Source: Methanobacteriota archaeon
Lineage (GTDB): Archaea > Thermoplasmatota > Thermoplasmata > UBA10834
Direction: 5' to 3'
Assembly (NCBI GenBank): GCA_020725925.1
Contig: DYTN01000006.1
Location: forward strand, 20,269-84,268
DNA length: 64,000 bases
A program made the position numbers and the translations under genes. Positions 2,915-29,492 of this stretch are shown piece by piece; within the stretch, counting starts at the first letter, position 1; every line of letters begins with the position of its first letter. The notes beneath the pieces were generated by a model. The model had not been told where the DNA came from and searched no databases. It saw only the letters and a list, made by a program, of their open reading frames with translations.

Positions 2915-3276
2915 ACTACTCCGGCGGGAGTCTGGGTGAGAGACTTCTGCATCAATGTCAGGATGGAAACTTCATCGAGTCAATACGCAGAGTATTTTGC
3001 TCCCCTAAGAGCCACCGATGCAGACAGCGCTCGAATCTCTCAAGATCATGTGGACAGGCTTACTATGGAGCACGAAGATGCTAAATGGGGAATCCTGCGC
3101 TCCGTTCGTACCCCAGCTCGTCCCAAGCACATAGAACGAGGACAAATAGAGAGCGATCTCTTCCATCTGGTCACTCGGACGCCTCGTCCGCAGGCCAAAT
3201 CGAAGAGCCTGCAAGTCTGATGTATACCAGCACCGTCAGTGTTCAGACTTCCATTTGAATGCGACTTTACTCAATG

Positions 3277-3300
3277 GTTCACATGCAATGGGATGCAGAC
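3277..3300 (+). repeat. 24-bp site A (putative recombination site)
   Basis: GTTCACAT-GCAATGGG-ATGCAGAC; intergenic, 44 bp before ORF 3345. Confidence 0.75.
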
Positions 3301-3344
3301 TGCGATTCACTGCATGTAGCTGATAGGCTCGTATCGGTGTATGG

Positions 3345-3647
3345 ATGATTCCCACCACGGGGGATAATCTGAACTGTGAGGACGATGATCGTCTCAAGGC
3401 CAAGTTCCTCGGCTGGCTCAAGAGGAATGGTGGAGCGAAGCACCTGACGACATGCGAGAAGAAGCTCCGTCATCTTGGTCTGGACTTGAGCTCTGCCGTA
3501 GGTGACTGGGATAAGGACAAGGTTTCGATTGTTCACAGCAGAGGGGACAAGGTGGTGTGGCTTAGGGACGTCCGCTGGGCAGATGAGTATGCAACTGCCT
3601 ACGACGTTGAGGTTTCTCATCATAGTCAATATCAAAACAAAAGTTAG
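3345..3647 (+). CDS. Hypothetical 100-aa protein, paralog of 14612..14905
   Basis: Shares 'F..WLKRN...K.L..C..KL.H..L' and 'WADE.A..Y.V.V.HH.Q' with the second copy. Confidence 0.75.
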   Translation: MIPTTGDNLNCEDDDRLKAKFLGWLKRNGGAKHLTTCEKKLRHLGLDLSSAVGDWDKDKVSIVHSRGDKVVWLRDVRWADEYATAYDVEVSHHSQYQNKS

Positions 3648-3738
3648 GACAGACAAACATAAATATCTGTAAAGCCTACTATGCTCGTGGATATGAAAGG
3701 TGACCAATGTGCCGTCTCGTGAACAAGTCCCGAGGAGG

Positions 3739-4260
3739 ATGCCGAAGTTGTCCGACTCGCCATTTGGCGGTCTTTTCGGGGATACAGCCGAGATCAGAGT
3801 GCTCCAGGAGATTGTGGCCGATCCGTTTTCGGACTACACCCATCATGATCTCATGGAACTGACTGAACTCTCGGATCCGAGTGTGAGGAGGGGCTTGCAC
3901 GTGTTGCTAAACCAGGGGATAGTTACCAACGTCTCTAATGACCGCCGGAGTCCCCTGTATCGTCCAAATCGTGCTTCGAAGAAGTTGACCGCTCTGATGT
4001 TCCTCGCGTACGCCATTCTTGACGACGAAAACGGCGAGGACTCCATGGACATGGCCGTCAAGGGCTATTGCGAGCCCAGGGCTCCTTACATCGATTTCTT
4101 CGAGATGCCCACTGCCAAGAAGGAAGGCGTCAGGGACTTCGACGGGGCGAGGGTGTACTTGTCGCAGGAAATCACGAGGGATCTCCGCGGAGTACTTCGC
4201 GAGATACTGAAGAAAGGATGCAAGGAAGGCCGGCTCGATAGGATCACAGTCTCGCGCTAG
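3739..4260 (+). CDS. Winged-helix (ArsR-like) DNA-binding protein fused to a DUF3467-like C-terminus
   Basis: RBS gaggagg precedes ATG 3739 (the ORF track extends to GTG 3700). The N-part matches 14957..15466 (PFGGLFG...VLQE.VADP...DL.ELTEL..P.VR). The C-part matches 15470..15811 (YIDF.EMP..KK.G...G.RVY.S). Confidence 0.75.
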   Translation: MPKLSDSPFGGLFGDTAEIRVLQEIVADPFSDYTHHDLMELTELSDPSVRRGLHVLLNQGIVTNVSNDRRSPLYRPNRASKKLTALMFLAYAILDDENGEDSMDMAVKGYCEPRAPYIDFFEMPTAKKEGVRDFDGARVYLSQEITRDLRGVLREILKKGCKEGRLDRITVSR

Positions 4261-4295
4261 ATGCACTGTCCGTATCTGGTGCGCTGAAGCCTAGA

Positions 4296-4319
4296 GTCCA
4301 CATGCAGCGGCATCAGAGC
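4296..4319 (+). repeat. 24-bp site B
   Basis: GTCCACAT-GCAGCGGC-ATCAGAGC; intergenic between 4260 and 4432. Confidence 0.7.
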
Positions 4320-4431
4320 CCATTAGGAGGCAGGCAGCCAGGAGAAAGCATTATCAGGGATGCCAGTGCTATGACTCTCGAATATGTCCCCTGCTGTTCA
4401 TCGCTGATGGACGGCAGGCAATTATCCACGA

Positions 4432-5091
4432 CTAGCTCTTCTTGCGCGCACGAAGCTTCTTCTCAGTCATCTCCTCGAGCTCGATCTTGATTGGAGACAC
4501 GACACCCCTCTCTTCCTCCAGCTCCTGCAGCCTCACCGCGAGATAACCCTCAAGGATCACCTCGCCACTCTGCGCCTCACACTCCTCCAGAATAGTGCGC
4601 CACTCAAGGCCTCGTTCTGCCAGACGAGCCATATCGTTGAGGTCGCCCTCTCGTTCAGTCACGCTCTTGAACAGGAAGATGTCTTCTGCAGACACGAGGT
4701 AGACTTCGAGTTTCCCATGCCTTGAATGGAGCTTGGAACGCGCGGCCATGCGAGGAGTGACCTTGATCTTTCTGCAGACTGTCTCTAGAAAGATGTCGAC
4801 ACGCATGCCCTTCTTGTCTTCCATCATGATTGCTGTTCCAAGACGACAATAGACATTGTCCTTCGGCACTACCACTCGGAAATCCTCCGTCGACAGCGCC
4901 TTGACCACCGATTCAGCCTCGTTCGCTGTGAGCAGTACCAGATCGATATCCTTGGTTGCGATCTTGGCGTTGTACAGAATCATTGCGCAGCCGCCAATTA
5001 GGTACGCCCTGACGTCGTCTGCTAGGGCTTGCCCCATTTGATTCAGAGCTCGTTCTAGATCATCCTTGCTTGACAATGCCCTATTGTTCAT
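4432..5091 (-). CDS. DUF6036-like nucleotidyltransferase (AbiEii-like toxin fold)
   Basis: Motifs 'YLIGGCAMILY...ATKDIDLV' and 'LFKSVTEREGDLND'. Overlaps the upstream HTH gene by 4 bp. Confidence 0.7.
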   Translation of the reverse strand: MNNRALSSKDDLERALNQMGQALADDVRAYLIGGCAMILYNAKIATKDIDLVLLTANEAESVVKALSTEDFRVVVPKDNVYCRLGTAIMMEDKKGMRVDIFLETVCRKIKVTPRMAARSKLHSRHGKLEVYLVSAEDIFLFKSVTEREGDLNDMARLAERGLEWRTILEECEAQSGEVILEGYLAVRLQELEEERGVVSPIKIELEEMTEKKLRARKKS

Positions 5092-6044
5092 ATGACGCCG
5101 CTCCCCAACTTGCCCTTGAGCTCGTCCAACTTCGGGAATGTGGGCGGTCGACTCACATCTGGATCTCTGAAGTAGTTGCGAATCGTCTCGAGATCGTCCT
5201 GTAGACCATACCTTGAAGCGCCTCTCCGGAGCCGGGCAAAATCTCGGGATAGGTTATTCCTGAGCCAGAGCATCAGTATCGCGGTATTCTCTCTGGTGTC
5301 CCGAGGCCTTAGAAGCATCGACTGCAGTAACACTTCATCAATTGTCCTGCGCCATTTTCCGATTGGATGGTAGTAGTACCGCCACGCCACGAAAAGTTGA
5401 ACGCCGTACTGCTCGAAGGCGGAAAACGCAGTCAGTCTGAAGTCCTCGCTCTCCTCGGCGCACTTGGTCCTGATGATGAATTCGCGACCTCGCTGCCAGA
5501 TCACCGTTGCATCGGAGCAGAACTCCTTCGCCTCAATCTGATTGGAGTACTCGTCGAACTCCTGCACGAATTCCGCAATGGGCTGGAAGCGGTCCGATAT
5601 CTCATAGATCCCCCTGGTCCGAGCACGCACCACCCCCAGTTCGCTCAACTGCTTCAGGGTCGTGTGGAGCGTTCTCGCTGAGACACCTGTGGACTGCATG
5701 AGGCTGGCTCTTGAGGATTCGGGGTATGCCGCGAGAGCCGAGAGGACGTTAAGAGATGCCAGCGAGATGATTCCTTCCAGCTTCATATGGCTGAACTCAT
5801 CAAGCACCCTCCTCAATCGTGACGCGTGCTTCTGGCGGGACATCGAGATCGAGGTCGTCATTCCCCGCCTGTCGACGTCCACCAATCCCTTGATCTTCAG
5901 CGATTTGACCAAGCGGGAGAGCTCCTGCGGGGAGATGTCCAAATCCTGAGCGACGGTCTTGGTGGCTTGGCCTTTCTCCCTGATGCTTCTCAGGACGGAG
6001 ATTTCCAAGGGTGTCAAGCGGGAGATTGCGTGGTTCATATGCAA
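5088..6044 (-). CDS. Tandem winged-helix (MarR-like) protein, putative AbiEi-type antitoxin/regulator
   Basis: Two HTH-like segments ('KTVAQDLDISPQELSRLVKSLKIKGLV', 'ARTLHTTLKQLSELGVV'). Translationally coupled to the nucleotidyltransferase. Confidence 0.65.
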   Translation of the reverse strand: MHMNHAISRLTPLEISVLRSIREKGQATKTVAQDLDISPQELSRLVKSLKIKGLVDVDRRGMTTSISMSRQKHASRLRRVLDEFSHMKLEGIISLASLNVLSALAAYPESSRASLMQSTGVSARTLHTTLKQLSELGVVRARTRGIYEISDRFQPIAEFVQEFDEYSNQIEAKEFCSDATVIWQRGREFIIRTKCAEESEDFRLTAFSAFEQYGVQLFVAWRYYYHPIGKWRRTIDEVLLQSMLLRPRDTRENTAILMLWLRNNLSRDFARLRRGASRYGLQDDLETIRNYFRDPDVSRPPTFPKLDELKGKLGSGVI

Positions 6045-6048
6045 TAAT

Positions 6049-6074
6049 TGTTAATAACTTATAAGTATTTAACA
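6049..6074 (-). promoter_or_regulatory. 26-bp near-perfect palindrome centred on TTATAA (promoter/operator of the HTH-NTase operon)
   Basis: TGTTAATAACTTATAAGTATTTAACA matches its reverse complement at 22/26 positions and lies directly upstream of the 6044/6038 start. Confidence 0.6.
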
Positions 6075-6115
6075 TTTTTTGCACATTTAGCCAGAGGATG
6101 CTCGGAGCATATGAA

Positions 6116-6172
6116 GGTGTCCAGTGGGAGTTGACACCCTATATTAGCAAATCAAGGGGAATTGTTGACACC
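6116..6172. promoter_or_regulatory. Operator-like motif GGTGTC-N11-GACACC plus a third TTGACAC half-site
   Basis: 6116..6144 matches 14418..14446 at 25/29. An extra TTGACAC lies 34 bp downstream in both copies. Confidence 0.55.
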
Positions 6173-6183
6173 TAGGTGAGGTT

Positions 6184-6207
6184 GGCTGCTTGTAGCAGGA
6201 ATTATCA
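6184..6207 (+). repeat. Integrase-proximal variant site I1 (attI-like)
   Basis: GGCTGCTT-GTAGCAGG-AATTATCA; the spacer starts 46 bp before the S-R-D codons of integrase 1, the same offset as I2. Confidence 0.5.
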
Positions 6208-6234
6208 GGACAGATCGGGGGCCTCGCTCAGGCA

Positions 6235-7215
6235 GTGTCTCGCGACTCATGGGTCCGTTGTCAGCAAGCGTACTTCGATGCGATCAGGTCCTACTACGCG
6301 CCAAGGACACTCCATTCTATGGAGCGTGGGTTCAGGACGATTCACGGGGCCTTTCTGGAGCTTCAAAATCAGGGCAAGGTACGGACTAGCAATCCGCAGA
6401 AGCTCACCAAGGATGACATCGCCGCATTCATGGAATGGATGAGAACAAGGAGGACGAGGACCGGCCTCAGTCTCGCTCACTCCACCCAGGCCAACTACAT
6501 GGACTACCTGAACGGCTTCCTTAGGTTCGAGAGTAACGGCGTGATCGACCAGATGAGGAAGCTCCACTATGTACGATTCCCTCAGAAGGTGCAGGGCGAG
6601 GTGAAGGTCCTGACGGAATCGAGACTGGAGGAGCTCCGGTTCAAGCTGCGAACGATGCCGGGGTATGAGGGGGCCGTCGCCCGGTTCATGGTGGCAATGT
6701 ACGCATACTCCGGTCTGAGGAGATCGGAGCTGCGCTTGTCGAGGCTCGAGGATCTGCGCCTCGATACCTGGACCATCTTGGTGGCCCACCCAAAGGGCGA
6801 AAGCAGCTGGGCGGCAGCGGCTCCCGCTCAGATACTGCCGCCTGCCCGCGATACTGTGCGAGAATTCCTGCGCGAGCGAAGACGGTATCTCCGGGCCTCA
6901 GGGGTATCGTCCTGCGAGGCCCTCGTCCCGAAGATATCGAATGGGGTGGCCGGCTACTGGACTGACGGGATGTGGGGCAAGGTCAAGGCAGCAGCAGTGG
7001 AGTGGTCCGGGATCAGGTTCCGCATCCAGGCGCTCCGAGCGACCTTCGGACAGATGAGCATCGATTGGGGCTGTCGGCTCGATGCGGTGTCGAGGGCGCT
7101 TCGCCACAAGACAACTCGGACCACAGAACTATACTATGCGAGGATTCGTTCCGATCATGCCTTTCGCCTGCTTGAGGAAGCATACGAGGGTGCCCACCAG
7201 GGGAGCGCCAAGTAG
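6235..7215 (+). CDS. Tyrosine recombinase / site-specific integrase (copy 1)
   Basis: Catalytic motifs SGLRRSEL (R), HPKG (K), QALRATF (QxxR in place of HxxR), LRHK (H) and ELYY (Y). Confidence 0.9.
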   Translation: MSRDSWVRCQQAYFDAIRSYYAPRTLHSMERGFRTIHGAFLELQNQGKVRTSNPQKLTKDDIAAFMEWMRTRRTRTGLSLAHSTQANYMDYLNGFLRFESNGVIDQMRKLHYVRFPQKVQGEVKVLTESRLEELRFKLRTMPGYEGAVARFMVAMYAYSGLRRSELRLSRLEDLRLDTWTILVAHPKGESSWAAAAPAQILPPARDTVREFLRERRRYLRASGVSSCEALVPKISNGVAGYWTDGMWGKVKAAAVEWSGIRFRIQALRATFGQMSIDWGCRLDAVSRALRHKTTRTTELYYARIRSDHAFRLLEEAYEGAHQGSAK

Positions 7216-7299
7216 GGCCCCCAATCTGTATGCTTTTATTTCATACGCGCTAACTAAGGCATATTGGTTTATATAGTATGTATGCTTTAGACTCTATGA

Positions 7300-8196
7300 A
7301 TGAATGAAATCATACTTGACCGTCTGCGTGATACATTGCTCACGCGAACCTCTCTCGATCGTCTTCCGGAAGATGTCTGGAAGCGATCGAGCGCCCTGAA
7401 TACTTGGGGAACCAACGCCATCGAAGGCAACACCTTGACTTGGAAGGAAGTTGAGAGACTGCTGCTTGAGGGCAAGAACATTGGGAACAGACCCATCCGC
7501 GATGTTCTCGAGACGATTCAACACGAAAGCACTTACAGGGACCTTCTACAGCGCAGGAGTCAGCCAATCACTCTGGTGACAGTGCTCGAGCTTCACGAAT
7601 CGGTGTTCAAGCGAGTGAAGGCGGATGCAGGCCAGTGGAGACGAGTCAACGTACGAATCACAGGATCGACACTCGTTCCTCCTCGGATGGAGAAGGTGGT
7701 GCCGGAGATGGAGGCCCTTCTCAGGCAATATGATAATCGGGACTTGGAAGGTGCGGAGACCTTCGACTTGGGAGCCTGGTTTCATCACGGATTCGAGTCT
7801 GTTCATCCTTTCAGCGATGGCAATGGCAGAGTCGGCAGACTTCTTCTCAACCTCCATTTCCTCAGGCGCAATTGGCCTCCCATTCATGTCCTTCCTCCGG
7901 ATAGGGAGACCTACCTGTCTGCAATGGAGAAGGGAAATCAATCCGACCTGTCGGATTTGGTGTCCTTTCTCAAGGAGCTGATGGGTCGATCCCTCCTCGA
8001 CCTGCTGGACCAAGTGGGTACTGGGGATGACGAGCTTAGGCCATTGAAGAAGCTCGCGTCGAAGGGGCCATACTCGGCGCACTACCTCAGCCTCAGGGCT
8101 GGCCAAGGGGAGCTGCCGGCGATCAAAGTCTCAGGGGATTGGCGGACCAGCGTCCGTGCGTTGCGACTATATCGGGAATTCACGGGGCGGGATTAG
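7300..8196 (+). CDS. Fic family protein with a C-terminal HTH-like tail
   Basis: Canonical HPFSDGNGRVGR motif; N-terminal 'TNAIEGNTLT'; TATA box tttatata at 7268..7275. Confidence 0.9.
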   Translation: MNEIILDRLRDTLLTRTSLDRLPEDVWKRSSALNTWGTNAIEGNTLTWKEVERLLLEGKNIGNRPIRDVLETIQHESTYRDLLQRRSQPITLVTVLELHESVFKRVKADAGQWRRVNVRITGSTLVPPRMEKVVPEMEALLRQYDNRDLEGAETFDLGAWFHHGFESVHPFSDGNGRVGRLLLNLHFLRRNWPPIHVLPPDRETYLSAMEKGNQSDLSDLVSFLKELMGRSLLDLLDQVGTGDDELRPLKKLASKGPYSAHYLSLRAGQGELPAIKVSGDWRTSVRALRLYREFTGRD

Positions 8197-8205: not shown

Positions 8206-8257
8206 CTACCCTCACATTTCCCAGAAATTGGCCGAAACAGCGAAATTGTGAGGGTAG
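8206..8257. terminator. Inverted repeat / hairpin after the fic gene
   Basis: Perfect 11-bp arms ctaccctcaca (8206..8216) and tgtgagggtag (8247..8257). Confidence 0.4.
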
Positions 8258-8310
8258 ACCTGCGCACGTGAAGCGGCGCCCCGCTCTTTCAGAAGATATC
8301 AGTCGAGACG

Positions 8311-8334
8311 GTTTGCATGTAGGGGAATTCGAAT
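8311..8334 (+). repeat. 24-bp site C
   Basis: GTTTGCAT-GTAGGGGA-ATTCGAAT; shares 15 identical bp (tgcatgtaggggaat) with site F. Confidence 0.75.
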
Positions 8335-8444
8335 CCGCAGCTATGGCTCTCTTCCGACGCAGCCGCTTGGAGCTGGCTCCTTTGTGATATAGATTATTCG
8401 TGTAAACTATTTATATGGGTAAATCATTCCATGCTCCCGAGACA

Positions 8445-9041
8445 ATGAACACGGATGCTCTAATCGCCGACAAGCTTCTCTCCGTTGCGCGGTTGTGGGG
8501 GGAAGCAAGTGACATGATCTATTCTGGAGTCCGTAAGGATGGCGACAGGGCCTGGTTTCACATGGCAGGCTACGAGGTGCTGAACCACATCGACAATGGC
8601 ATCACAACCACCAAGAAGCTTGCAGCCGAAGTGAACAGCACGATGGCCAACATCACGCACATGACCAAGGCCTTGGAGGAGAGTGGATGCATAAGGCGGG
8701 AGGTCAACAAGACGGACAAACGTGTGTGGAATTTCCACACGACTTCGAAGGGAAGAAACCTGCTTCGCGTCGTCCGGTTGCAACATGTCGCAGCCATTGG
8801 GCACTTCTGCTCACAATTCACCGAGGATCAGAAGATGTGCGTGTTGACCTTCCTCAGCGCCATCGAAACGCATTTGGTTCAGTTTGTCCGGATACCTGAG
8901 GGCGAGCGAATGAAGATGTTGCAGCAGCACCAGAGTCCTGAGCTGGCGGCTCATTTCAGCTCCATGCAAGCCTCAGGCAAGCGAAGCGCTTCCTCCAGAC
9001 GTAGACGGCTCGTGGGGAAACGGGGAGTTGACCGTGCTTGA
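8445..9041 (+). CDS. MarR family transcriptional regulator
   Basis: 'KKLAAEVNSTMANITHMTKALEESGCIRREVNKTDKRVW..HTTSKG'. The ORF-track start 8415 falls in a TATA-like tttatat about 30 bp before ATG 8445. Confidence 0.75.
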   Translation: MNTDALIADKLLSVARLWGEASDMIYSGVRKDGDRAWFHMAGYEVLNHIDNGITTTKKLAAEVNSTMANITHMTKALEESGCIRREVNKTDKRVWNFHTTSKGRNLLRVVRLQHVAAIGHFCSQFTEDQKMCVLTFLSAIETHLVQFVRIPEGERMKMLQQHQSPELAAHFSSMQASGKRSASSRRRRLVGKRGVDRA

Positions 9042-9964
9042 TCGAACTACAGAACTTGACCAAAACCTTCGGATCACTGAGAGCCGTCGACAACCTCAGC
9101 CTGAGCGTTCCGAAGGGTCAGACTGTTGGATTTCTGGGACCTAACGGCGCTGGCAAGACAACGACCATCAGAATCATGACCAATTCGATCAGTGCGACAA
9201 GCGGTAGCGTACTCCTTAACGGGATAGACGTGAGGGCCAACCCGAAGCAAGCCTTGGGCTCTGTGGGGATAGTCGTTGAGACTCCGGAATTCTATTCCTA
9301 TCTGACTTCCCTTGAGGTTCTGGCGTATCTTGGAAGCCTCAAGGGGTTGCAGCCGAATGAAATCAAGCGGCGGAGCCAAGAAGTCCTTCATCTGGTCAAG
9401 ATGGATGAATGGAAAGACACGCGCGTCGGTGGTTTCTCGAAGGGTATGAAGCAACGGCTCGCGATTGCCCAGGCCATGCTTCACGAACCTGAGATACTCA
9501 TTCTCGACGAGCCCACGACAGGCTTGGATCCGCGAGGCATGGTAGAGGTGAGGGAGGTCATTCGTCGGCTCAAGAGGGAAGGATACACGATCTTCATGAG
9601 CTCGCACTTGTTGCCGGAGGTCCAAGAGGTCTGCGACAGCGCCGCCCTGGTCAATCATGGAAAGCTTCTGGCCTACGATTCCATTGACAATCTCGGAAAG
9701 ATGGTGAAGAACACCAGGATCGAGGTCATGACCTTTTCCGACATCCCGCCGTCCATCCTTGACAGAATCAAGGAACTTCCGCAAGTACGCTCGGTCGACC
9801 TTGTGAACGCACGCTCGGTCATAGTCACCATCGAGGATTCGCCCAGTGCTCGTGCCGATCTCCTCGGTTCGATCCAGAATGCTGGCACCCCCGTCACTGG
9901 GTTTCAGCCTATCGATCTCCCACTAGAGACGATCTACATGGATTTGGTGAAAGAGTCGAGGTGA
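9038..9964 (+). CDS. ABC transporter ATP-binding protein (CcmA/multidrug type)
   Basis: Walker A GPNGAGKTT, signature FSKGMKQR, Walker B LILDEPT, H-loop SSH. Confidence 0.95.
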   Translation: MIELQNLTKTFGSLRAVDNLSLSVPKGQTVGFLGPNGAGKTTTIRIMTNSISATSGSVLLNGIDVRANPKQALGSVGIVVETPEFYSYLTSLEVLAYLGSLKGLQPNEIKRRSQEVLHLVKMDEWKDTRVGGFSKGMKQRLAIAQAMLHEPEILILDEPTTGLDPRGMVEVREVIRRLKREGYTIFMSSHLLPEVQEVCDSAALVNHGKLLAYDSIDNLGKMVKNTRIEVMTFSDIPPSILDRIKELPQVRSVDLVNARSVIVTIEDSPSARADLLGSIQNAGTPVTGFQPIDLPLETIYMDLVKESR

Positions 9965-9970
9965 TTGTAG

Positions 9971-10804
9971 ATGACAGAGGATGTAATGAGGAGACGCCAG
10001 TTACCGTCAGACCTCGTCCAGACACTGATTGTATGGAAGTACGAATCTCTGAAGTACCTCAGGTCATACAGGCTTGTCGGTTCAATCGTGATAGTTCTCG
10101 CCATCGTCGCCCTCGTCTACGTGGGTCCCATCCTGGCCGGGAACGGCTATGGCAGCGTAGATGCTGAGGCCTTCGCGTCGAACTTCGTCCAGTTCGCTAG
10201 CATGCTCATCGTAGTCTGTGCGACGTTCTTCGGAGCTGACGCAATTGTCGGCGAATTTCAGAACAGGACTGGTCACACAGTCCTTTCGAGCGCGGTGAAC
10301 CGGCGCACAGTCTATGCGGGAAAATTCAGCGCAAGCGCGATCATGGGCATATGTGTGGTGGCACTATTCTACGCAAGCATCGGCATCCTCTCGTGGTTGA
10401 CTATCGGCAATGTCGACGACGATTTCGCGATATCGTTTGCATATGCCCTGGAGCTACTCCTGGCTGCAACAGCGGTGGCCTACCTGATCAGCGCCATCTT
10501 GAAGAGCACGACTGGCGCATCCGTGCTCAACTTCTTCCTCTTGATTCTCGTCCTTCCGATAGTCGATATGATGGTGTCCTATGCTGGCATAAGGCCCGAA
10601 GGGTCGCTCACCTTCTCAGCAGGAGTCATAGGCAGCGTGTTGGCAGATCCGTATCCAGTAGACACCACGGTGACAATGCACGGGATCACGTCATCTCGAT
10701 TCTTTCCGGATCCGGCACTTGCCGCCATCGTCCTTCTTGCATATGGATTGGCCGCTCTGGCGATGGGGATTCTCCTATTCAGGAGGAGGCAATTGCAGGG
10801 CTAG
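9971..10804 (+). CDS. ABC-2 type transporter permease
   Basis: About six hydrophobic helices and an 'IVGEFQNRT' EAA-like motif, directly after the ATPase gene. Confidence 0.85.
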   Translation: MTEDVMRRRQLPSDLVQTLIVWKYESLKYLRSYRLVGSIVIVLAIVALVYVGPILAGNGYGSVDAEAFASNFVQFASMLIVVCATFFGADAIVGEFQNRTGHTVLSSAVNRRTVYAGKFSASAIMGICVVALFYASIGILSWLTIGNVDDDFAISFAYALELLLAATAVAYLISAILKSTTGASVLNFFLLILVLPIVDMMVSYAGIRPEGSLTFSAGVIGSVLADPYPVDTTVTMHGITSSRFFPDPALAAIVLLAYGLAALAMGILLFRRRQLQG

Positions 10805-10813
10805 TGGGAAATG

Positions 10814-10837
10814 CGTCGCATGTAATGGGATATTAAC
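10814..10837 (+). repeat. 24-bp site D
   Basis: CGTCGCAT-GTAATGGG-ATATTAAC, 10 bp after the permease stop. The spacer differs from site A by one base. Confidence 0.65.
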
Positions 10838-11212
10838 CGAGCATTTCGCCGAGCGGGGGGTTCGAGGCCGTGCAGCACGTAGCAGAAAAGCAAATGTACT
10901 GCTGAGGGAATGGTACGAATGTGTACAACGCCGCTGCGACGCGAGGAATTCGATCTCGAACTGGGAACTCAGGTCTTATATCGGGCGGAAGATACTCAAG
11001 GAATGCGAATAGCTGCCGGGCTAGGTGATGTAGGTGGCGTACCCGGAACCAATCCCTGTTCTCAAGTCGAAGGAAGCCAAGGAGTTCGAGAATAGATTGG
11101 ACTCATTCAAGCTCAGCGGCGCCCAGAAAGAGTTATATCGACAAGCAATTGAGAGATTCGGCTCCAGGTAGACGATCACCGGCGAACATGGGGGCCTGAG
11201 TCCATCGCGCGG

Positions 11213-11788
11213 TTGTTCGAGCATCCCAGCGAGATCGATACCTTCAGACTCAGGTTCGAACCATTCAAATCTGACTCCCTTCAGGTGAGATCCGTTGACT
11301 GTGGAAACAGGGCTCTCAACGATTTCCTTAGGTCTGAAGAAGTCGCCAACTACGAGCGGGAACTGCTTGGAAAGACGACTCTGGTCTTCTACGAAGGAGA
11401 TCTTGCAGGATACTACACAATGAGCAGCGGATCCCTCAGATCTGAGTACCTCAAGACTTGGAGGAGCTTCACGAAGGCCGGTGAAGTTCACCTGAACGCG
11501 ATACCCTGTTTGATTGTTGGTAGACTTGCCGTTGACGGGAGATGGCAGAACAAAGGGGTTGGAAGAACAGTCATGCAGAGAATCATGATTCACGCCCTTG
11601 ATTGCTCGAGACATGCGGAGATCCGTTTAGTTGTGGTTCAGGCGAAGAAGGAAGCCACTGATTTCTACAAGAAGCTCGGGTTTGATTTCGTCGCAGAGAC
11701 CAGTGAAGAAAGGAAGAGATTCAAAGCTAGAAACACGAGGACGATGTTCTTCGATATCCTCGAGCTCAGTTACCTGAGAACCATCTAG
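11213..11788 (+). CDS. GNAT family N-acetyltransferase (AtaT/TacT toxin-like)
   Basis: 'DCGNRALNDFL', 'GYYT', 'GRLAVDGRWQNKGVG', 'FYKKLGF'. Confidence 0.85.
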   Translation: MFEHPSEIDTFRLRFEPFKSDSLQVRSVDCGNRALNDFLRSEEVANYERELLGKTTLVFYEGDLAGYYTMSSGSLRSEYLKTWRSFTKAGEVHLNAIPCLIVGRLAVDGRWQNKGVGRTVMQRIMIHALDCSRHAEIRLVVVQAKKEATDFYKKLGFDFVAETSEERKRFKARNTRTMFFDILELSYLRTI

Positions 11789-12126
11789 ACTACATCAGAA
11801 TCACTCGAGACTGGGGTCGAAAGGTCCACGATCCTCTGAGCAGGCACATCAAGTTGAAACCAGCCGACCTCTCCAAGTGGCGAGCTGATCAGAAGAATCA
11901 GAGATATACAGTATGTTTTCGAGATCCAACCTTCGGTTGAAGATTGGCCTCATCGGAAAAGTGAATCCAATCTACTTAAAGAATGGCACGTGGCTGGCCA
12001 CAGTGGCAACTCCGCGTCCTTCTGATGCGTATTGTACTATGATGCAGCATTTTCACGTCAATGTCATGCATCATAATACAACATGCTCGGCAATGCCTAC
12101 CCACGTACTGCTGAGGCTTCCTGACT

Positions 12127-12150
12127 GTCCACATGCGGTGGGATTTGAAC
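12127..12150 (+). repeat. 24-bp site E
   Basis: GTCCACAT-GCGGTGGG-ATTTGAAC; the left arm is identical to site B. Confidence 0.75.
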
Positions 12151-12247
12151 TGACGCCCGTTCATCCCCGACGACCTGACATATCCAAGACTCGGCCGCGA
12201 GAGGCTACGAGCAGCAACAAAGTATAATACACTCGGCAGGAATCTCG

Positions 12248-12562
12248 ATGCGACAAGAGAACGAGGCCCTGAGGTCGAACATGACGGAAGCTTGTAGAAC
12301 GGCTCTGCCAAAGGGCATGTCCATCCGCCGAATTGCGGCTGAGATCGAACAGGCAGCGCAGAACAAACTCTGGGTTATGAACCACATGGCGGAACTCAGA
12401 GAGAAGTATCCTGACCAGTTCGTCGCATGCAGGGATGGGAAGATTGTTGCCAGTGCGAGTTCGAGTGAGGGGGTCTTCCGCAAACTCAAGAAAAAACGGG
12501 AGGACCTGTCTCTTATCGCCATCGAATTCGTGCCGAAGGACCGTGTGATTTGGCTCCTTTGA
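12248..12562 (+). CDS. DUF5678-domain protein
   Basis: 'WVMNHMAELREKYPDQFVACRDGKIVASA...IEFVP...WLL'; TATA-like gtataat about 25 bp upstream. Confidence 0.7.
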   Translation: MRQENEALRSNMTEACRTALPKGMSIRRIAAEIEQAAQNKLWVMNHMAELREKYPDQFVACRDGKIVASASSSEGVFRKLKKKREDLSLIAIEFVPKDRVIWLL

Positions 12563-13078
12563 TTGTTCATCCGGCGCGGTGGCGGTCTCTTGAGGAAATT
12601 CCCAGCTAGGATCTCCGATGATCCTGATCAAGCTGAGGCGTTCTTCTTCACGTGCTATGTTCTGGCTCATGACCATCTCAAGGGGGCTTTGGTGAACTTC
12701 TACCTCGACACAGGTTCCTCGGACGTGATCATGGGGGAGAACGATCTCAAGAAGATTGAGATGCCTCTTGCATCATTGCCACACGCGCCCGAGCCCATCG
12801 CTGGATGGGGCGGCACTACAGTCGCGTTCCTTATGACGAACGTCTGCCTGTACCTGACTGATAGTGAGGGGAAGACCGAGGCCTTTGAGGTTCCTGAGGT
12901 GATCTGTGGGAGGAACCCCAAGCATGACAAGACGAAGACAAAGGGGATGCAAAGAATCACTGAGACCCGAAGGATTCCAATTCCCAGCGTCATTGGAAGG
13001 AGGTTTCTCCGGGACACGGGATTGATTGCCCATGTCGACGTGAAGGGCAGAGACATCTGCCTGTTCTCCCCGGGCTAG
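12563..13078 (+). CDS. Clan AA (retropepsin-like) aspartyl protease family protein
   Basis: 'FYLDTGSS' catalytic-type motif and C-terminal 'SVIGRRFL'; abuts the DUF5678 gene. Confidence 0.7.
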   Translation: MFIRRGGGLLRKFPARISDDPDQAEAFFFTCYVLAHDHLKGALVNFYLDTGSSDVIMGENDLKKIEMPLASLPHAPEPIAGWGGTTVAFLMTNVCLYLTDSEGKTEAFEVPEVICGRNPKHDKTKTKGMQRITETRRIPIPSVIGRRFLRDTGLIAHVDVKGRDICLFSPG

Positions 13079-13133
13079 GACCCCTGTAGATCGGCAGAAT
13101 CACACAGAGATTTCCGCGCGCGCATCCGAGTGG

Positions 13134-13157
13134 GTGTGCATGTAGGGGAATGCAAAC
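13134..13157 (+). repeat. 24-bp site F
   Basis: GTGTGCAT-GTAGGGGA-ATGCAAAC; spacer identical to site C, right arm identical to site G. Confidence 0.8.
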
Positions 13158-13177
13158 CAGGTTCAGCTCATGGCACA

Positions 13178-14395
13178 TCAGACCTTATCCTCGAGCATGA
13201 ATCGCCACAATGGTAAGAGCTCAACGCCATCGACGCGCCCGCTCTGGTTCCTCGTGATGACGATCTTCCGCTTGGCCTTCAGGTCCTTCAGATGAGAGAC
13301 GTCATCCAGGTTCACCCGGTCGGAGTACTTGACCTCGTAGCACGAATCTGGAAGGACGAAATCCACCTCCCTTTCGCGGACGAGACCGTAGGCGGGGTTG
13401 TAACCGCGTTCTCGCAGCTTGTTGAACACGCAGTTCTCAACTAGGCATCCGATGTTGACTGTGGGGCTCAGGATGTGCACGATGCCTGTGTCGCTCAGGT
13501 AGGCCTTCCTCGGAGCTGCCATACTCTCGGCCACCTTCCCCTTCAGCCGGATTGTGTGGATCAGGTTCGCCTCCTCGAAAGCCGAGAGGTGCTCGCGCAC
13601 AGTCTCATGCGATATGCCGAGGATCCTTGCGATCCTTCTCGGCGACAGCTTAGAGCCGCAGCTCTGTGACACTATCAGCAGTAGCTCCCTGAGGACCCGC
13701 ATGTTCCTCACACCGCGGCGGGCACCGATGTCCTTGTACAGTATGGAGTCGATGAGGGTCGTCAAGTAGCCGGGGTCGCCCGTCTTCAGATACTCTGGAA
13801 GGCCCCCTGCGCGAACGAAATCCTCGATATGTCTGACCATCAGATGGGAATCGCTTGGCTTTGTCCTGATCTTCTTCATGACGAGGTACTCTGAGAAACT
13901 GAACGGGAAGACCTCAATGAATGTCTGCCTGCCCGTCAGGAACGAACCCTTCTCGACCATAAACAACGACGAAGAGCCGGTGGCGAAGACCTTGACGTGC
14001 CCAAGATCGTATGTCGTCTTGAGCTCCTGTTCGAAACCATCCCTGAGATGGACTTCGTCGATGATTGTTGTGAATCGATCGTTGTGTTTCAGACCATGGA
14101 GCCGCCTGTAGCTGTTCAGAACGTCCAGGATTGATTCTCTTACTAGCGAGGGGTGGTCCATGGAGAAGTAGAGGATTCTTCTCGGATCCTGCCCCCTCGA
14201 AATGAGTTCTTCGATGTATTGGCGGACCAGCGTGGTCTTTCCAACTCTGCGGAGACCGGTGACGAAGACAATCTCTTTGGTTCGCTCTCGTCGACTCAGC
14301 TGCTCGAGATATCGGGTTCTTCTGATTCCCTCAGCCCTGAATGGGGATTCCCACCACGGGTTGAAGATTGCCAGGACTTCTTCCACGAAGTGCAA
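13178..14395 (-). CDS. AAA+ ATPase with DUF4143 nuclease-like domain (COG1373)
   Basis: Walker A GLRRVGKTT, Walker B IIDEVH, 'ATGSSS', 'LTGR', and C-terminal 'EVDFV...YEVKY'. Confidence 0.85.
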   Translation of the reverse strand: MHFVEEVLAIFNPWWESPFRAEGIRRTRYLEQLSRRERTKEIVFVTGLRRVGKTTLVRQYIEELISRGQDPRRILYFSMDHPSLVRESILDVLNSYRRLHGLKHNDRFTTIIDEVHLRDGFEQELKTTYDLGHVKVFATGSSSLFMVEKGSFLTGRQTFIEVFPFSFSEYLVMKKIRTKPSDSHLMVRHIEDFVRAGGLPEYLKTGDPGYLTTLIDSILYKDIGARRGVRNMRVLRELLLIVSQSCGSKLSPRRIARILGISHETVREHLSAFEEANLIHTIRLKGKVAESMAAPRKAYLSDTGIVHILSPTVNIGCLVENCVFNKLRERGYNPAYGLVREREVDFVLPDSCYEVKYSDRVNLDDVSHLKDLKAKRKIVITRNQSGRVDGVELLPLWRFMLEDKV

Positions 14396-14417
14396 AGGAC
14401 ATCAAGGAGTATATATA

Positions 14418-14474
14418 GGTGTCCACTACAAGTTGACACCCTATATAAACAAACGATGCAAGACGCTTGACACA
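14418..14474. promoter_or_regulatory. Operator-like motif (second copy) between divergent TATA boxes
   Basis: ggtgtccactacaagttgacaccctatat, with TATA-like tatata on both flanks (about 14410..14417 and 14442..14449) and an extra ttgacac at 14467. Confidence 0.55.
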
Positions 14475-14501
14475 TCTGCCATGAAGAACTCTCTTGAGCA
14501 T

Positions 14502-14525
14502 GTCTGCATGCAGCGGAATGCAAAC
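14502..14525 (+). repeat. 24-bp site G
   Basis: GTCTGCAT-GCAGCGGA-ATGCAAAC; arms are 7/8 complementary and the spacer differs from site B by one base. Confidence 0.8.
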
Positions 14526-14611
14526 ATGTGACAATGCGGCCCTTGGAGTTGTGTCTAGTTTCACTGCACGTACTGGGAAAGACTAACCAGTCAAAGTCAG
14601 TCCTCTTAGTG

Positions 14612-14905
14612 ATGGAGTCCGATGGGCCCTCCGACACTTGTGAGAGGAAAGCGTTGTTCGTCGCCTGGCTCAAACGTAACAGCGCAGGCAAGACACTACG
14701 CGTCTGTAGGAGGAAACTCAAACATCCGGACCTGGCGGAGGATACCCTGACTTCATTTCCCAGCAAGATCTGCATTCAACGACAATACGGCGAGGAGTTT
14801 GTTCGTCTTGAGGACCGCAAATGGGCGGATGAACTCGCGAAGACCTATGAGGTGAAGGTGATGCATCATGCCCAGCGCATTGGGCTGAAAAAAGATTTAC
14901 TGTAA
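14612..14905 (+). CDS. Hypothetical protein, paralog of 3345..3647
   Basis: Homology to the first copy begins after ATG 14612 (the ORF track extends to GTG 14528). Confidence 0.75.
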   Translation: MESDGPSDTCERKALFVAWLKRNSAGKTLRVCRRKLKHPDLAEDTLTSFPSKICIQRQYGEEFVRLEDRKWADELAKTYEVKVMHHAQRIGLKKDLL

Positions 14906-14956
14906 CAAAAAAGATATATATGGTAGAATGCAGGTACGGATAGAACTAGCTCAGAT

Positions 14957-15466
14957 GTGCCCAACATGAGGAACGAAAAAGTACGCTCAATTCGCGACAC
15001 GGTTGACGTGGTCGACGCCCCTTTCGGGGGCCTGTTCGGGAGTATATCACAACAGAAGGTGCTCCAGGAGCTGGTCGCCGATCCGTATTCAACCTACACT
15101 CCAAGAGACCTCACAGAGCTGACAGAGCTCACAGAGCCGACTGTGCGAGAAGCGATTGCTGCTCTGCTCCAACTTGGGATTCTCAGGAACATATCTCGGC
15201 GCAGAATGCGGCCGGTGTATCAAGTGAATCTAGACTCGAAAAGAATGGTCGCGCTGATGTTTCTCAGTTATGCAACTCTGGACGATAGGTACGGCGAGGA
15301 CCATCTGAGCGACGCCGTCAAGTGCTACTACGAGACGGTTCAGTCTTCGTGTCTTGAGCTCGAACCAGGAGAAGTGACAAGCGTGATGGGGGATTCATAC
15401 TGGAGCATTGCCAAAGAGGCGCTTTCAAGCGAGAAGGGGTATGCAGCCGCAGCGGCGGGGGTGTAG
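14957..15466 (+). CDS. Winged-helix (ArsR-like) DNA-binding protein
   Basis: 'PFGGLFG...VLQELVADP...TPRDLTELTELTEPTVREAIAALLQLGIL'; paralog of 3739..4260; TATA gatatatat upstream. Confidence 0.75.
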   Translation: MPNMRNEKVRSIRDTVDVVDAPFGGLFGSISQQKVLQELVADPYSTYTPRDLTELTELTEPTVREAIAALLQLGILRNISRRRMRPVYQVNLDSKRMVALMFLSYATLDDRYGEDHLSDAVKCYYETVQSSCLELEPGEVTSVMGDSYWSIAKEALSSEKGYAAAAAGV

Positions 15467-15469
15467 AAG

Positions 15470-15811
15470 ATGGCAAAGAGACCGAAATCCGATCTGGAGC
15501 CGTCCCCTAGACCCGGGGACTCAAGGATTTCAATAGATCTAAGGAAGATCTACGAATTTGACGCCAAGGACATAGTGCCTGAGATCAGCACGATCAGGTA
15601 CTCCAACCTGGCTTACATCCAGGTCACGCCGCGGGACCTCTACATAGATTTCCTGGAAATGCCCGGCGTGAAGAAAGATGGCCGGATGGTCGTGAGCGGG
15701 GTGAGGGTCTACATGTCTCACGTAGCAGGTCAGAGGCTCTCCCAGACTCTAGGGCACACCATTTCGGAGGTCCTCGAGAAGGGCAAGATTGAGGAACTCA
15801 AGAAGAGATAG
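15470..15811 (+). CDS. DUF3467-like protein
   Basis: 'YSNLAYIQVTPRDLYIDF...VRVYMS...QRLSQTL' fits the DUF3467 pattern as recalled. In frame with the upstream wHTH gene (TAG AAG ATG). Confidence 0.6.
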   Translation: MAKRPKSDLEPSPRPGDSRISIDLRKIYEFDAKDIVPEISTIRYSNLAYIQVTPRDLYIDFLEMPGVKKDGRMVVSGVRVYMSHVAGQRLSQTLGHTISEVLEKGKIEELKKR

Positions 15812-15907
15812 AACCGTCGAGTGGGGCTCTGCAGTTCTTACCCTTGCATTTCGACAGAATCGAGACATGGAATGGATTTGCAGGGGTAATCTAGTGCCTC
15901 AGATTGC

Positions 15908-15931
15908 TGCTACATGTAACGCAAATCCTCA
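15908..15931 (+). repeat. Integrase-proximal variant site I2 (attI-like)
   Basis: TGCTACAT-GTAACGCA-AATCCTCA; same 46-bp offset as I1, and the right arm matches I1 at 6/8. Confidence 0.5.
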
Positions 15932-15946
15932 CTATGGAACTCAGCC

Positions 15947-16972
15947 ATGGACACGGTTGTGGGTCGCGATCCATGGGTTCCATGTCAACGGGCCTATCTT
16001 GAGGCGATCAGAAGCTACTACGCTCCGAAGACCCTCCAGACAATGGAGCGAGGCTTCAGGACTTTACATAGGGCCTTCCTCGAGCTTAGGAAGGATGGCA
16101 AGGTCAGCACAACGAATCCTCAGATGTTGACTAAGGACGACATCGCGGCCTTCATGGAATGGATGAGGACGAGGAAGACGAGGCATGGCATCAGCCTTAC
16201 ACATGCCACTCAAGCCAACTACATGGACTACCTCAACGGACTTATGAGGTTCGAGAACAACGGGGTGATCGACCAGATGAGAAAGCTGCACTATGTGCGC
16301 TTCCCTCAGAAGGTGTCTGCCGAAGTCAGAGTACTGCCAGAGTCTCGAGTCGAGGAGATCCGCTCAAAGCTTAAGACAATACCGGGGTACGAAGGCGCTG
16401 TGGCACGGTTCATGGTGGCGATGTACGCCTACTCAGGTCTCAGAAGATCTGAGCTTCGCCGAGCTAGGTTCGAGGACCTTAACATCGACACCTGGACGAT
16501 TATGGTTGCTCATCCCAAGGGCGAGAGCAACTGGGCCGTCGCCTCTCCCGCACGGATATTGCACCCTGCCCGTGAGACGGTCGTCGAGTTCCTGGCAGAA
16601 CGAAATCGGTATCTGGCTGATGCCGGCATCGAGTCATGCGAGGTATTGGTGCCTAAGATCATCGATGGCGTCGCAGGATATTGGACTGACGGGATGTGGG
16701 GGAAGATCAAGGCAAAGGCTGAGAAGTGGTCAGGAATCAGGTTCCGGATCCAGACTCTGCGGGCCACTTTCGGTCAGATGTGCATCGATTGGGGCGGCCG
16801 TCCCGATGCGGTCTCTAGGGCGCTCAGACACAAGACCACACGGACGACCGAACTCTACTACGCCAGGATACGGCCGGATCATGCTTTTCGTCTTCTCGAT
16901 CAGGCTTACGATTCTGCTCATAGCGAGAAGAGGTCCCCACAAAAGCCCCTCGGTTGGGAAGAAGCCAGCTAG
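15947..16972 (+). CDS. Tyrosine recombinase / site-specific integrase (copy 2)
   Basis: Same motifs as copy 1 (SGLRRSEL, HPKG, QTLRATF, LRHK, ELYY); roughly three-quarters identical to copy 1 by eye. Confidence 0.9.
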   Translation: MDTVVGRDPWVPCQRAYLEAIRSYYAPKTLQTMERGFRTLHRAFLELRKDGKVSTTNPQMLTKDDIAAFMEWMRTRKTRHGISLTHATQANYMDYLNGLMRFENNGVIDQMRKLHYVRFPQKVSAEVRVLPESRVEEIRSKLKTIPGYEGAVARFMVAMYAYSGLRRSELRRARFEDLNIDTWTIMVAHPKGESNWAVASPARILHPARETVVEFLAERNRYLADAGIESCEVLVPKIIDGVAGYWTDGMWGKIKAKAEKWSGIRFRIQTLRATFGQMCIDWGGRPDAVSRALRHKTTRTTELYYARIRPDHAFRLLDQAYDSAHSEKRSPQKPLGWEEAS

Positions 16973-16976
16973 TCCG

Positions 16977-16999
16977 GTGTGCAGGGACCTGATTTGAAC
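16977..16999 (+). repeat. Possible variant site H immediately after integrase 2
   Basis: GTGTGCAG-GGACCTG-ATTTGAAC: left arm 7/8 to site F, right arm identical to site E, but a 7-bp divergent spacer. Confidence 0.35.
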
Positions 17000-17708
17000 C
17001 TAGATAACCGGCGGAATCGCCCTCTACTCGTTTTCCCACTAATCCAACCACTGCCTGCCGCGGGATGGTTTCTCTACAGGCAAGGAGTGTGTTGTCAGTC
17101 CATAAGGCCTGGACAATCTGGCTACACTTCAATTGAGACTTGTCTGAGATGTTCAAAACAGGAGTAGCGCATTGCGTCTTCCGCGAGTTGATTCCCTGCC
17201 GTTATCATTTGCAGGTGAAACTCCTTCGCCGACAGAGAGCCGTCTTCCCTGCTATGATGGGGACAATGTCCTTCAGTCCAGTCGCCAATTCGCATTGACA
17301 CGGTCTCCTCAGTGCGTCTGAGGAAGTGCATCTAGGTCTCAGGACGCACGCAAAGCCGGAAAGCCACTGAAACCGCTCGACTTGCAGTCAAGCGTCTCGG
17401 ACAACGACTCAGACCAGCCATGCAGTCAGCGTGCCGCCGGGGTCTTAACACAACGCAAGGGTCTCTCTTGGGAAGCATAGGACTTCTGAAGGAGGATCGC
17501 TGGATTGGACGCAATGGAAGAGACCAAGACATAAGTATCTGGATGACGATACGATAGTTGGTCCGAAGAGCAACCTCGACTCGGGGGAGTTCTGAACGTG
17601 TGGGGAGGAATCGGCTCATTGCTGGAGACTCCGCCTCAATTCAATGAGGACTAATCTCGCCAGGCAGGCGTGCTTTTCTTTGCTGATATCAGGAAGTAAG
17701 CCGGAGAT

Positions 17709-21664: not shown

Positions 21665-22069
21665 TAGTAATCCTGCTCGCTTGTCCTTTGTTTCCTTCAT
21701 CTTCTAGGCGAAGATCTGTCCCCTGAGATGCTTAGCTGGCAACGTGACCTCGAGATCAATCATGAGCCGAGAGCTAGACATGAACCCAATACTAGCCATG
21801 TCTTCAGGCATGTAGGTTCTTGCGCCCAACCGCACTCACTTCAACCAAATGACGGAGTCCTCTGTCCGTAGGTAGACGGAGTCTCCCCCCTCATTTTGCA
21901 TCGGCAAGTAAAGCATCCATTTTTGGTTGCCGGAAGACTCCGGGCCAATATCCGGGCCCAGACTCAACATCCGCCTCTTGCACGAAGTGCTTGTCTTCGA
22001 ACCCAAGAAGATTCATCTGTTAGTCTGCGATTCGGAGATCTAGCGCATGGTCAACTTCGGTGGCGTCAA

Positions 22070-29437: not shown

Positions 29438-29492
29438 TCAAGACCCAGGTGTGGTGGTGCTATTGAAGTCGGTTGTCTTGGGATACGCGGCT

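Follow-up and report, generated by a model that had tools for sequence, protein, structure and literature searches.

The stretch of DNA analyzed here, called the window, comprises 64,000 nucleotides of contig DYTN01000006.1 (GenBank assembly GCA_020725925.1) from an uncultivated Thermoplasmata archaeon. Between 3.2 and 17 kb it carries an array of gene modules with two related sets of core and integrase genes and, within the first set, an operon encoding a helix-turn-helix (HTH) protein and a DUF6036 nucleotidyltransferase (NTase). Coordinates are window positions throughout, and the loci of relatives are labeled L001 and so on. In core 1, a gene fusing a winged HTH (wHTH) to DUF3467 is followed by a short site, B, then by the NTase/HTH operon, a second site, I1, and the integrase gene int1. 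In core 2, separate wHTH and DUF3467 genes are followed by a single site, I2, and by int2, with a gap of 135 nt between DUF3467 and int2. This order of genes in both cores, and the span of about 1.9 kb from B to I1, had been described in an initial annotation made from the letters alone, and both were confirmed with Pfam, alignments, and site matrices.

The initial annotation had further taken core 2 to be the empty counterpart of core 1, and that equation had to be abandoned. Int1 and int2 share 77% protein identity and 75% DNA identity, and the wHTH proteins of the two cores share only 41%, so the core copies are old relatives and not recent duplicates. Judged by these identities, copy 2 is a different element, not an empty allele of copy 1. 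The 186-amino-acid (aa) fusion protein of core 1 aligns over residues 1 to 125 with the wHTH protein of copy 2 and over its last 60 residues with the C-terminal half of DUF3467. Such a fusion is a recurrent natural variant, found also in L006, L009, L014, L050, and L071.

Each of the intermodule gaps from 3.2 to 16 kb carries a common motif on the plus strand. This motif, which we call the C-type site, is a 26-bp near-palindrome with the consensus GGTTTGCAT-N8-ATGCAAACC, that is, two 9-bp inverted arms around an 8-bp center. Two inverted arms around a short center are also the layout of Xer/dif-type sites, and the borders of the center are the putative borders of strand exchange. The second class, the I-type site (consensus TGCATGTARYGCRAATCCTCAC), has a C-like left arm and center and a different right arm, and it lies 40 to 100 nt upstream of the integrase gene in essentially all relatives. 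Weight matrices for the sites were built from other genomes only, with shuffled windows as the control. The C-type matrix matched at 3276, 4295 (B), 8310, 10813, 12126, 13133, and 14501, always on the plus strand, while shuffled windows gave 0.06 C-type matches each at a score of at least 14. The I-type matrix matched I1 (6183 to 6212, score 25.6) and I2 (15907 to 15936, score 39.8) only, with a shuffle maximum of 15.6. Since matrices derived from other genomes score B, I1, and I2 above shuffled sequence, we regard all three as real sites. Among 102 nonredundant C-sites in the relatives' loci, 89 are oriented as int and 3 are opposite, and this orientation is constant whatever the orientation of the genes. 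The sites are intergenic, many of them in 5' leaders and some at convergent gene ends (B and 13133); 27% of the C-sites fall inside long stop-free stretches, though these cover 79% of the bases. The C-site also stands ahead of the small open reading frame (ORF) of the core in at least 12 relatives.

The relatives number 72 Thermoplasmata loci, of which 6 come from reference-genome metagenome-assembled genomes, 64 from metagenomes, mostly of freshwater and wetland sediments, and 2 (L072 and L073, both close relatives) from a search with the NTase. A scan of IMG/VR with the integrase profile returned no relatives and so gave no hint of a virus. Immediately behind int in about 27 loci, and encoded on the other strand, stands an intact tRNA-Leu(CAG) gene, the 3' end of which (GGTGTGCAG.GGAGCCGG.ATTTGAACC) also qualifies by its score as a C-type site. 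A few loci (L044, L054, and L061) have modules between int and the tRNA gene. An intact tRNA target within the window, suspected at first, was ruled out: tRNA and Rfam scans of the 64-kb window gave no match and no tRNA gene, only a decayed 3' fragment of tRNA-Leu(CAG) (T-arm and acceptor 3' strand, with an 8-nt insertion) follows int2, and no tRNA remnant follows int1. The array of the window may have lost its tRNA target gene or moved away from it.

Across the 72 loci the same modules recur, namely the core (split or fused), Fic, the AAA_14/DUF4143 ATPase, NTase plus HTH, DUF5678 with an aspartic-protease-like protein, and GNAT. They stand in many orders, and rarely in other orientations, with C-type sites between them. 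Breakpoints were collected as the 61 internal ends of blocks shared between loci at 93% identity or more, and 24 of these ends fell inside a 26-bp site, in all cases a C-site. For example, L003 and L056 are 99.5% identical rightwards from the center of a site, through core and int, and to the left of it Fic is found in one locus and the NTase/HTH operon in the other. Between L012 and L056, the operons agree at 95% identity as far as offset 21 of this site. In L037 and L038, the shared sequence takes in the operon plus the right arm of the site on its left, and the left arm of that site is different. A 465-nt cassette common to L014 (340 to 830) and L068 (570 to 1058) lies exactly between two C-type sites in otherwise unrelated contexts; a typical gene would be longer than this. 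Elsewhere in L068 (2995 to 4266), and in L069, int is broken by a 1.27-kb insertion whose 414-aa product, TnpB-like and of the IS605/IS1341 type, has a zinc-ribbon motif. The AAA_14 cassette of L025 (2726 to 4395) is inverted, together with its left site and without its right site, an arrangement that suggests an inversion between sites.

Arm segregation was assessed by counting mean mismatches over pairs of sites for the left arm, center, and right arm in turn. Where two sites adjoin the same right module and have unrelated left flanks (11 pairs), the means were 2.73, 1.73, and 0.45; where the left module is the same and the right flanks are unrelated (15 pairs), they were 1.33, 2.27, and 2.60; and unrelated site pairs (n = 1,687) gave 2.87, 3.39, and 3.07. 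Each arm therefore goes with the module next to it, and the changeover falls within the 8-bp center, which is the signature of site-specific exchange. A stricter rule, in which the center always travels with the left arm, had been drawn from L014/L068 and L004/L042 and was rejected, as the pair statistics show a mixed center. These comparisons show, at the level of sequence, that the sites are real, that modules have been shuffled between genomes, and that breakpoints fall inside C-type sites, B among them. The initial annotation had looked to the two cores of the window for its best internal evidence that the sites are used. Use of the sites is upheld; the strong evidence for it comes from other genomes and not from within the window.

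The NTase/HTH operon (module 4321 to 6182) behaves as one of these cassettes. The window and L072, its closest relative, share a single high-scoring segment pair (HSP) over 4309 to 8191 at 80.8% identity, with 89% protein identity in the NTase. Because this HSP begins at 4309, the left breakpoint of homology falls within B. The right arms of B and of the L072 site match (ATCAGAGCC and ATCTGAGCC) and the left arms differ (AGTCCACAT and GATTCAGAT), and left of B the DNA is unrelated, L072 having a gene for a 1,041-aa surface protein where the window has core 1. In L073, a site (GGTTCACGT.GCAATGGC.GTCTGAGCC) lies at the place equivalent to B, with a DUF5678/protease module on its left. The operon also occupies other positions, before a Fic-like gene (L002), in the Fic/int interval (L012), before the core (L056 and L059), and before the ATPase (L030). 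Its right edge in L002, L012, and L056 is a C-type site 124 to 134 nt upstream of the HTH start, the position taken by I1, at 139 nt, in the window. Thus, its breakpoints in other genomes coincide with B (L072) and with the position of I1 (L002, L012, and L056), a check that the initial annotation had called for. Its left edge divides the cassettes into two subfamilies, one (L002, L012, L037, and L038) with the site about 23 nt after the NTase stop codon and one (window, L072, and L073) with the site 111 to 124 nt after it. The 111 noncoding nucleotides at 4321 to 4431 are about as conserved between the window and L072 as the genes are, are absent from the other cassette subfamilies, and may represent a structured 3' untranslated region or a small RNA. 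A decayed ancestral site at 4393 to 4418, considered as an explanation of this long flank, was dropped, since the flank is shared by L072 and L073, whose site occupies the place equivalent to B. By these comparisons the operon is truly a cassette bounded by sites, in an apparently recombination-driven array, with B as its demonstrated crossover point in the alignments.

The initial annotation had also proposed a search for relatives in which the operon is missing upstream of int, and most relatives do lack it there. Upstream of the I-site, 40 distinct contexts had enough sequence to be classed. In 12 of them, including the fused cores of L006, L014, and L071, the core stands directly before I and int. 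The remaining contexts were Fic-type (9), ATPase (6), NTase/HTH (5), other known modules (3), and modules of unknown type (5).

At the right end of the operon, just before I1 and at the 5' end of this minus-strand cassette, lies a 70-nt module (6104 to 6172) composed of a TATA element, an inverted repeat GGTGTCCA..GTTGACACC, a second TATA element, and a third GTTGACACC. A second copy of the module, 81% identical, closes the ATPase cassette on its right (14406 to 14474), just before the C-site at 14501, which indicates that a like cassette end has been joined to both I-type and C-type right arms. It may be an operator for a wHTH protein or an accessory site for Int.

The products of the operon resemble a toxin and its partner. 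Among PDB sequences, the NTase matched the AbiEii/MenT1 toxin 8an4 only weakly (E = 0.034). Its AF2 model (pLDDT 90.3) gave MenT1 (8an5/8an4) as the best Foldseek match (E = 1e-6, probability 1.00, TM 0.53 to 0.65), followed by TglT, and the modeled protein is accordingly assigned a predicted MenT/AbiEii nucleotidyltransferase toxin fold. The HTH gene precedes the NTase gene, its stop codon overlapping the NTase start by 4 nt, and the two genes occur together in all loci that carry them (at least 10). The double-wHTH ORF is 318 aa long when read from 6044, with a probable start at 6038. We infer a toxin-antitoxin or abortive-infection pair like MenAT or AbiE, with the HTH protein as the putative antitoxin. 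The likeness lies in the match of the NTase model to MenT1 and TglT and in the overlapping upstream HTH gene, as in AbiEi-AbiEii. The differences are a sequence identity of only 16 to 18%, a DUF6036 family assignment here as opposed to DUF1814, and the partner, a 318-aa double-wHTH protein; that this protein matched neither AbiEi nor MenA families in Pfam, NCBIfam, and sequence searches counts against the assignment. PADLOC likewise returned no match for the NTase. Other cargo of the array does resemble candidate defense families in PADLOC, Fic being PDC-S04/SoFic and the ATPase PDC-S01 (E = 1e-76).

In light of these results, we consider it likely that the window holds a cassette array driven by site-specific recombination, with the HTH plus DUF6036 operon as one of its modules. 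A distinct family of tyrosine recombinases, represented by int1 and int2 and normally found beside tRNA-Leu(CAG), would serve modules of 0.5 to 2.5 kb. The 26-bp sites would bound each module and mimic the 3' end of the tRNA, and recombination in the 8-bp center would produce a site composed of one module's left arm and the following module's right arm, so that modules could be inserted, excised, and reshuffled. Int is the presumed catalyst of this exchange. The operon would supply an NTase toxin and an HTH partner under its own bidirectional promoter/operator, B would be the junction of core 1 with the cassette, and I1 would be the conserved integrase-proximal site at the right end of the cassette. 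A broader reading, to which we give about even odds, is that this is an independently evolved, IntI-free analogue of the integron in freshwater-sediment Thermoplasmata, in which a Xer-like recombinase at tRNA-Leu(CAG) captures, excises, and reshuffles defense and toxin-antitoxin cassettes via the tRNA-mimicking 26-bp sites, the core regulators and possibly int being cassettes themselves.

Several observations weigh against movement of modules by Int at these sites or, more narrowly, against insertion of the operon at I. B and I1 are degenerate and are the weakest members of their site classes, and the centers differ between sites, which classical tyrosine recombinases tolerate poorly. The int1-Fic junction (window and L072) and the Fic-core junction (L072) have no site; deletions and other events also shape the arrays. 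None of the 61 block ends lies within any I-site, versus 24 in C-sites, and the I-sites keep their I-type left arm and center whatever the upstream module. In the lineage of L005, L013, L027, and L048, the exchange was at a full C-type site 17 nt upstream of I. The arrangement operon-I-int is kept in L072 and L073 at 77 to 81% nucleotide identity, the block in L072 running on through Fic, and the closest relatives of the window are only about 80% identical.

The junction between the operon and int1 is therefore old; as L072 and L073 share it, it predates the split of the three lineages, among which the variable part is the DNA left of B. The near-invariant CAT of the I left arm has been lost in the same lineages and beyond (CTT in the window and L009, CCT in L072 and L073), suggesting that the junction is now frozen, and the block of cassette, I1, int1, and Fic is probably both old and now fixed in this lineage. 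L037 and L038 show a further layout, in which the operon is followed by a C-site, about 80 nt, the I-site, and int. It is plausible that the cassette was inserted at I, one site becoming two, and the cassette would once have entered at or next to an I-site. The I-site itself may be an attI-like capture site or, equally, an Int-binding operator or an old attL. The initial annotation had read the operon as the footprint of a cassette inserted at the integrase-proximal site. What stands of that is a discrete, site-bounded module with its left breakpoint in B; a recent insertion does not, given the age of the junction in L072 and L073. The cassette with real boundaries and the crossover at B are thus solid, and recent insertion into an empty integrase-proximal site is not.

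One further record touches on I1. Look-ups of exact proteins returned a sole other record, a 1.2-kb contig (L001; Logan SRR13164374) that equals window 4993 to 6192 and encodes the exact 316-aa HTH product. One end of this contig coincides with the first base of I1's 8-bp center and the other lies within the NTase gene; the contig was not used as evidence. The end at I1 could reflect a branch of the assembly graph at the site.

The absence of breakpoints in I-sites would also be expected if the arrays had grown by accretion, the sites being attachment (att) scars that successive small elements left behind as duplicates of the tRNA-Leu 3' end, each newcomer at the tRNA gene pushing older elements away, and I being an attL scar or an Int-binding operator without any capture. 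We consider this account improbable, although it survives best among the alternatives. The resemblance of the sites to the tRNA-Leu 3' end, the tRNA gene after int, the modules between int and tRNA in L044, L054, and L061, and the conservation of the I left arm and center independently of the upstream module all agree with it. However, newcomers at the tRNA would part int from it, and int lies directly by the tRNA in about 27 loci, with the content to its left varying. Accretion is further opposed by the presence of the same cassette at internal positions, by the breakpoints in internal sites, and by the I-site of L008, the left arm of which is perfectly C-type.

A regulatory or structural role of the 26-bp palindromes, for example as wHTH operators or transcript-end signals, with the shuffling due to homologous recombination and not to the integrase, is very unlikely. 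Sites that are intergenic and often in 5' leaders would fit such a role, as would the existence of other conserved intergenic modules (D17 and the CCCTCACA inverted repeat) and several breakpoints that miss the sites (downstream of I at offset 52 and, in L004, 22 nt to its left). Yet homologous exchange would not be efficient over arms of only 9 bp, the arms segregate independently with the switch confined to the 8-bp center, the sites keep one orientation whatever that of the genes and stand at convergent gene ends as well, and they are tied to a tyrosine recombinase and a tRNA end. That nothing here is mobile, copies 1 and 2 being anciently diverged paralogues and B and I1 chance matches, can practically be dismissed: the copies are 23 to 25% diverged, the score of B is no more than 15.5, and I1 departs from the I consensus at 8 positions, but external matrices find both sites at the predicted places at a negligible rate of chance matches, the L072 breakpoint lies inside B, and the operon moves between contexts.

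Table 1. Coordinates of the features of the module array in the window, with the evidence or remarks for each (PWM, score with the position weight matrix built from other genomes).
Feature	Position	Strand	Evidence or remark
C-type 26-bp site GGTTCACAT.GCAATGGG.ATGCAGACT	3276..3301	+	Left edge of core module 1 and of the array; external PWM 32.7
Small core protein 1, 100 aa, no family	3345..3647	+	Homologues at 14528-14905 and in ORFs of L004, L006, L009, L014
wHTH::DUF3467 fusion protein, core 1	3700..4260	+	Pfam HTH_5; alignment to copy 2
Site B AGTCCACAT.GCAGCGGC.ATCAGAGCC	4295..4320	+	Cassette left edge, crossover point in the L072 alignment; PWM 15.5
Conserved 111-nt 3' flank of NTase gene	4321..4431	-	L072 alignment; cassette part in window/L072/L073 subfamily
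DUF6036 nucleotidyltransferase, predicted MenT/AbiEii-like toxin fold	4432..5091	-	Pfam, AF2 model, Foldseek
Double-wHTH protein, putative antitoxin/regulator	5088..6044	-	Pfam MarR_2, HVO_A0261_N, HVO_2833_C
Cassette promoter/operator module	6104..6172	unstranded	81% identity to 14406-14474; also in L009, L059
Site I1 TGGCTGCTT.GTAGCAGG.AATTATCAG	6183..6208	+	I-type, cassette right edge; external I-PWM 25.6
Tyrosine recombinase int1	6235..7215	+	Pfam Phage_integrase
Fic-domain protein	7300..8196	+	Pfam Fic; PADLOC PDC-S04/SoFic; one conserved block with int1
C-type site	8310..8335	+	Right edge of int1-Fic block; PWM 28.7
Weak C-type site	10813..10838	+	3' of MarR-ABC transporter module (8415-10804); PWM 13.5
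C-type site	12126..12151	+	3' of GNAT module (11213-11788); PWM 24.0
C-type site	13133..13158	+	3' of DUF5678 + 171-aa module (12248-13078); PWM 36.9
AAA_14/DUF4143 ATPase cassette, PDC-S01-like	13178..14395	-	Pfam; PADLOC E = 1e-76
C-type site	14501..14526	+	Left edge of core module 2; PWM 30.9
Core module 2: small protein 14528-14905, wHTH 14957-15466, DUF3467 15470-15811	14528..15811	+	Pfam, alignment
Site I2 CTGCTACAT.GTAACGCA.AATCCTCAC	15907..15932	+	Sole site between DUF3467 and int2; I-PWM 39.8
Tyrosine recombinase int2	15947..16972	+	Pfam; comparison with int1
Decayed tRNA-Leu(CAG) 3' fragment	16976..17030	-	Alignment to intact tRNA-Leu of L002, L003, L007

The coordinates of the array are collected in Table 1. 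The window has a G+C content of about 54% over 1 to 35 kb and of about 60 to 65% over 35 to 64 kb, and the array lies within the low-GC part. The genes 3' of int2 (17709 to 21620 and 21896 to 22564) have homologues that also stand 3' of int in L059 and L035. Two further kinds of intergenic repeat were observed. One, at 8209 to 8254, is an inverted-repeat element with CCCTCACA and TGTGAGGG separated by about 30 nt, which occurs beside Fic-type genes and just upstream of I-sites in many loci; it is present also in L002, L008, L012, L023, L029, L035, L037, and L041. The other is a family of six copies of about 28 nt (TCGGAAAAGACCATAGGAATGGAAAGGC) at 29357 to 34405, before and between dehydrogenase, reductase, and unknown genes. 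In front of three of the six copies stands ATGTTCAAACC, a sequence similar to a C-site arm. This second family could be a shared promoter or leader or could mark module boundaries of another kind.

Integrons, in which IntI acts on folded attC sites, are essentially the only known case of cassette capture by site-specific recombination. In the window, a different archaeal recombinase family with simple sites, of a double-strand type and derived from a tRNA end, appears to reach an integron-like architecture, with defense-like and toxin-antitoxin-like modules traded among uncultivated archaea. If true, this would be a second and mechanistically simpler route to cassette platforms, would account for a hypervariable hotspot in Thermoplasmata genomes, and would make the compact recombinase and its 26-bp site a candidate tool for archaeal genetics.

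The integrase scored 19.6 bits with the integron model TIGR02249 (cutoff 265) and 15.1 with PRK15417 (cutoff 435). Its best NCBIfam hit was XerA_Arch at 40.2 bits (cutoff 220), followed by XerD (31.6, cutoff 330) and XerC (28.2, cutoff 335), and a profile of 8 integrases found no PDB sequence at an E value of 1e-3 or below. On these scores, the integrase is neither an integron integrase nor an XerA orthologue. Archaeal integrons already described are of the IntI plus attC type (Ghaly et al. 2022, PMC9668308). The likeness to integrons lies in a tyrosine recombinase beside an array of short cassettes, one site of fixed orientation per cassette and a distinct integrase-proximal site, a breakpoint at a fixed place in the site that leaves part of it at each end of the cassette, and cargo rich in toxin-antitoxin and defense-type genes. 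In contrast, the sites here are of 26 bp with a 9-8-9 layout and resemble a tRNA end, whereas attC sites measure 60 to 150 nt and recombine as folded single strands, a distinction judged by size and layout. The cassettes here stand in both orientations with their own promoters, and int reads towards the tRNA gene, codirectionally with the array. As for capture at attI, the content upstream of I is hypervariable here, yet I-sites hold none of the collected breakpoints.

Searches of the literature found no prior description of this system. The tycheposons of Prochlorococcus (bioRxiv 10.1101/2020.12.28.424599) likewise have a tyrosine recombinase by a tRNA and partial tRNA copies that flank modules, and they form islands of several elements and remnants in which cargo is swapped like plug-in cassettes. 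The modules here, at 0.5 to 2.5 kb, are much smaller, most of them without integrase or replication genes. Moreover, int here stays at the tRNA while the internal modules vary, and the repeats are short near-palindromic sites and not long tRNA segments.

Archaeal integrative elements at tRNA genes offer comparable tandem elements that target a tRNA. Their trait is present in the relatives, where int adjoins the tRNA gene and the 3' part of the tRNA is repeated at the sites. Among Xer/dif systems, the pdif modules of Acinetobacter plasmids and the IMEX elements are cargo, often toxin-antitoxin genes, bounded by short two-arm sites. The array resembles these in its inverted arms, here putative recombinase-binding arms, in the many contexts in which the modules occur, and in a recombinase that is distantly Xer-like. 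It differs from them in that its sites are 9-8-9 and not 11-6-11 and are all direct and not alternating, and in that its recombinase is encoded within the array, is linked to a tRNA, and is not tied to the resolution of chromosome dimers.

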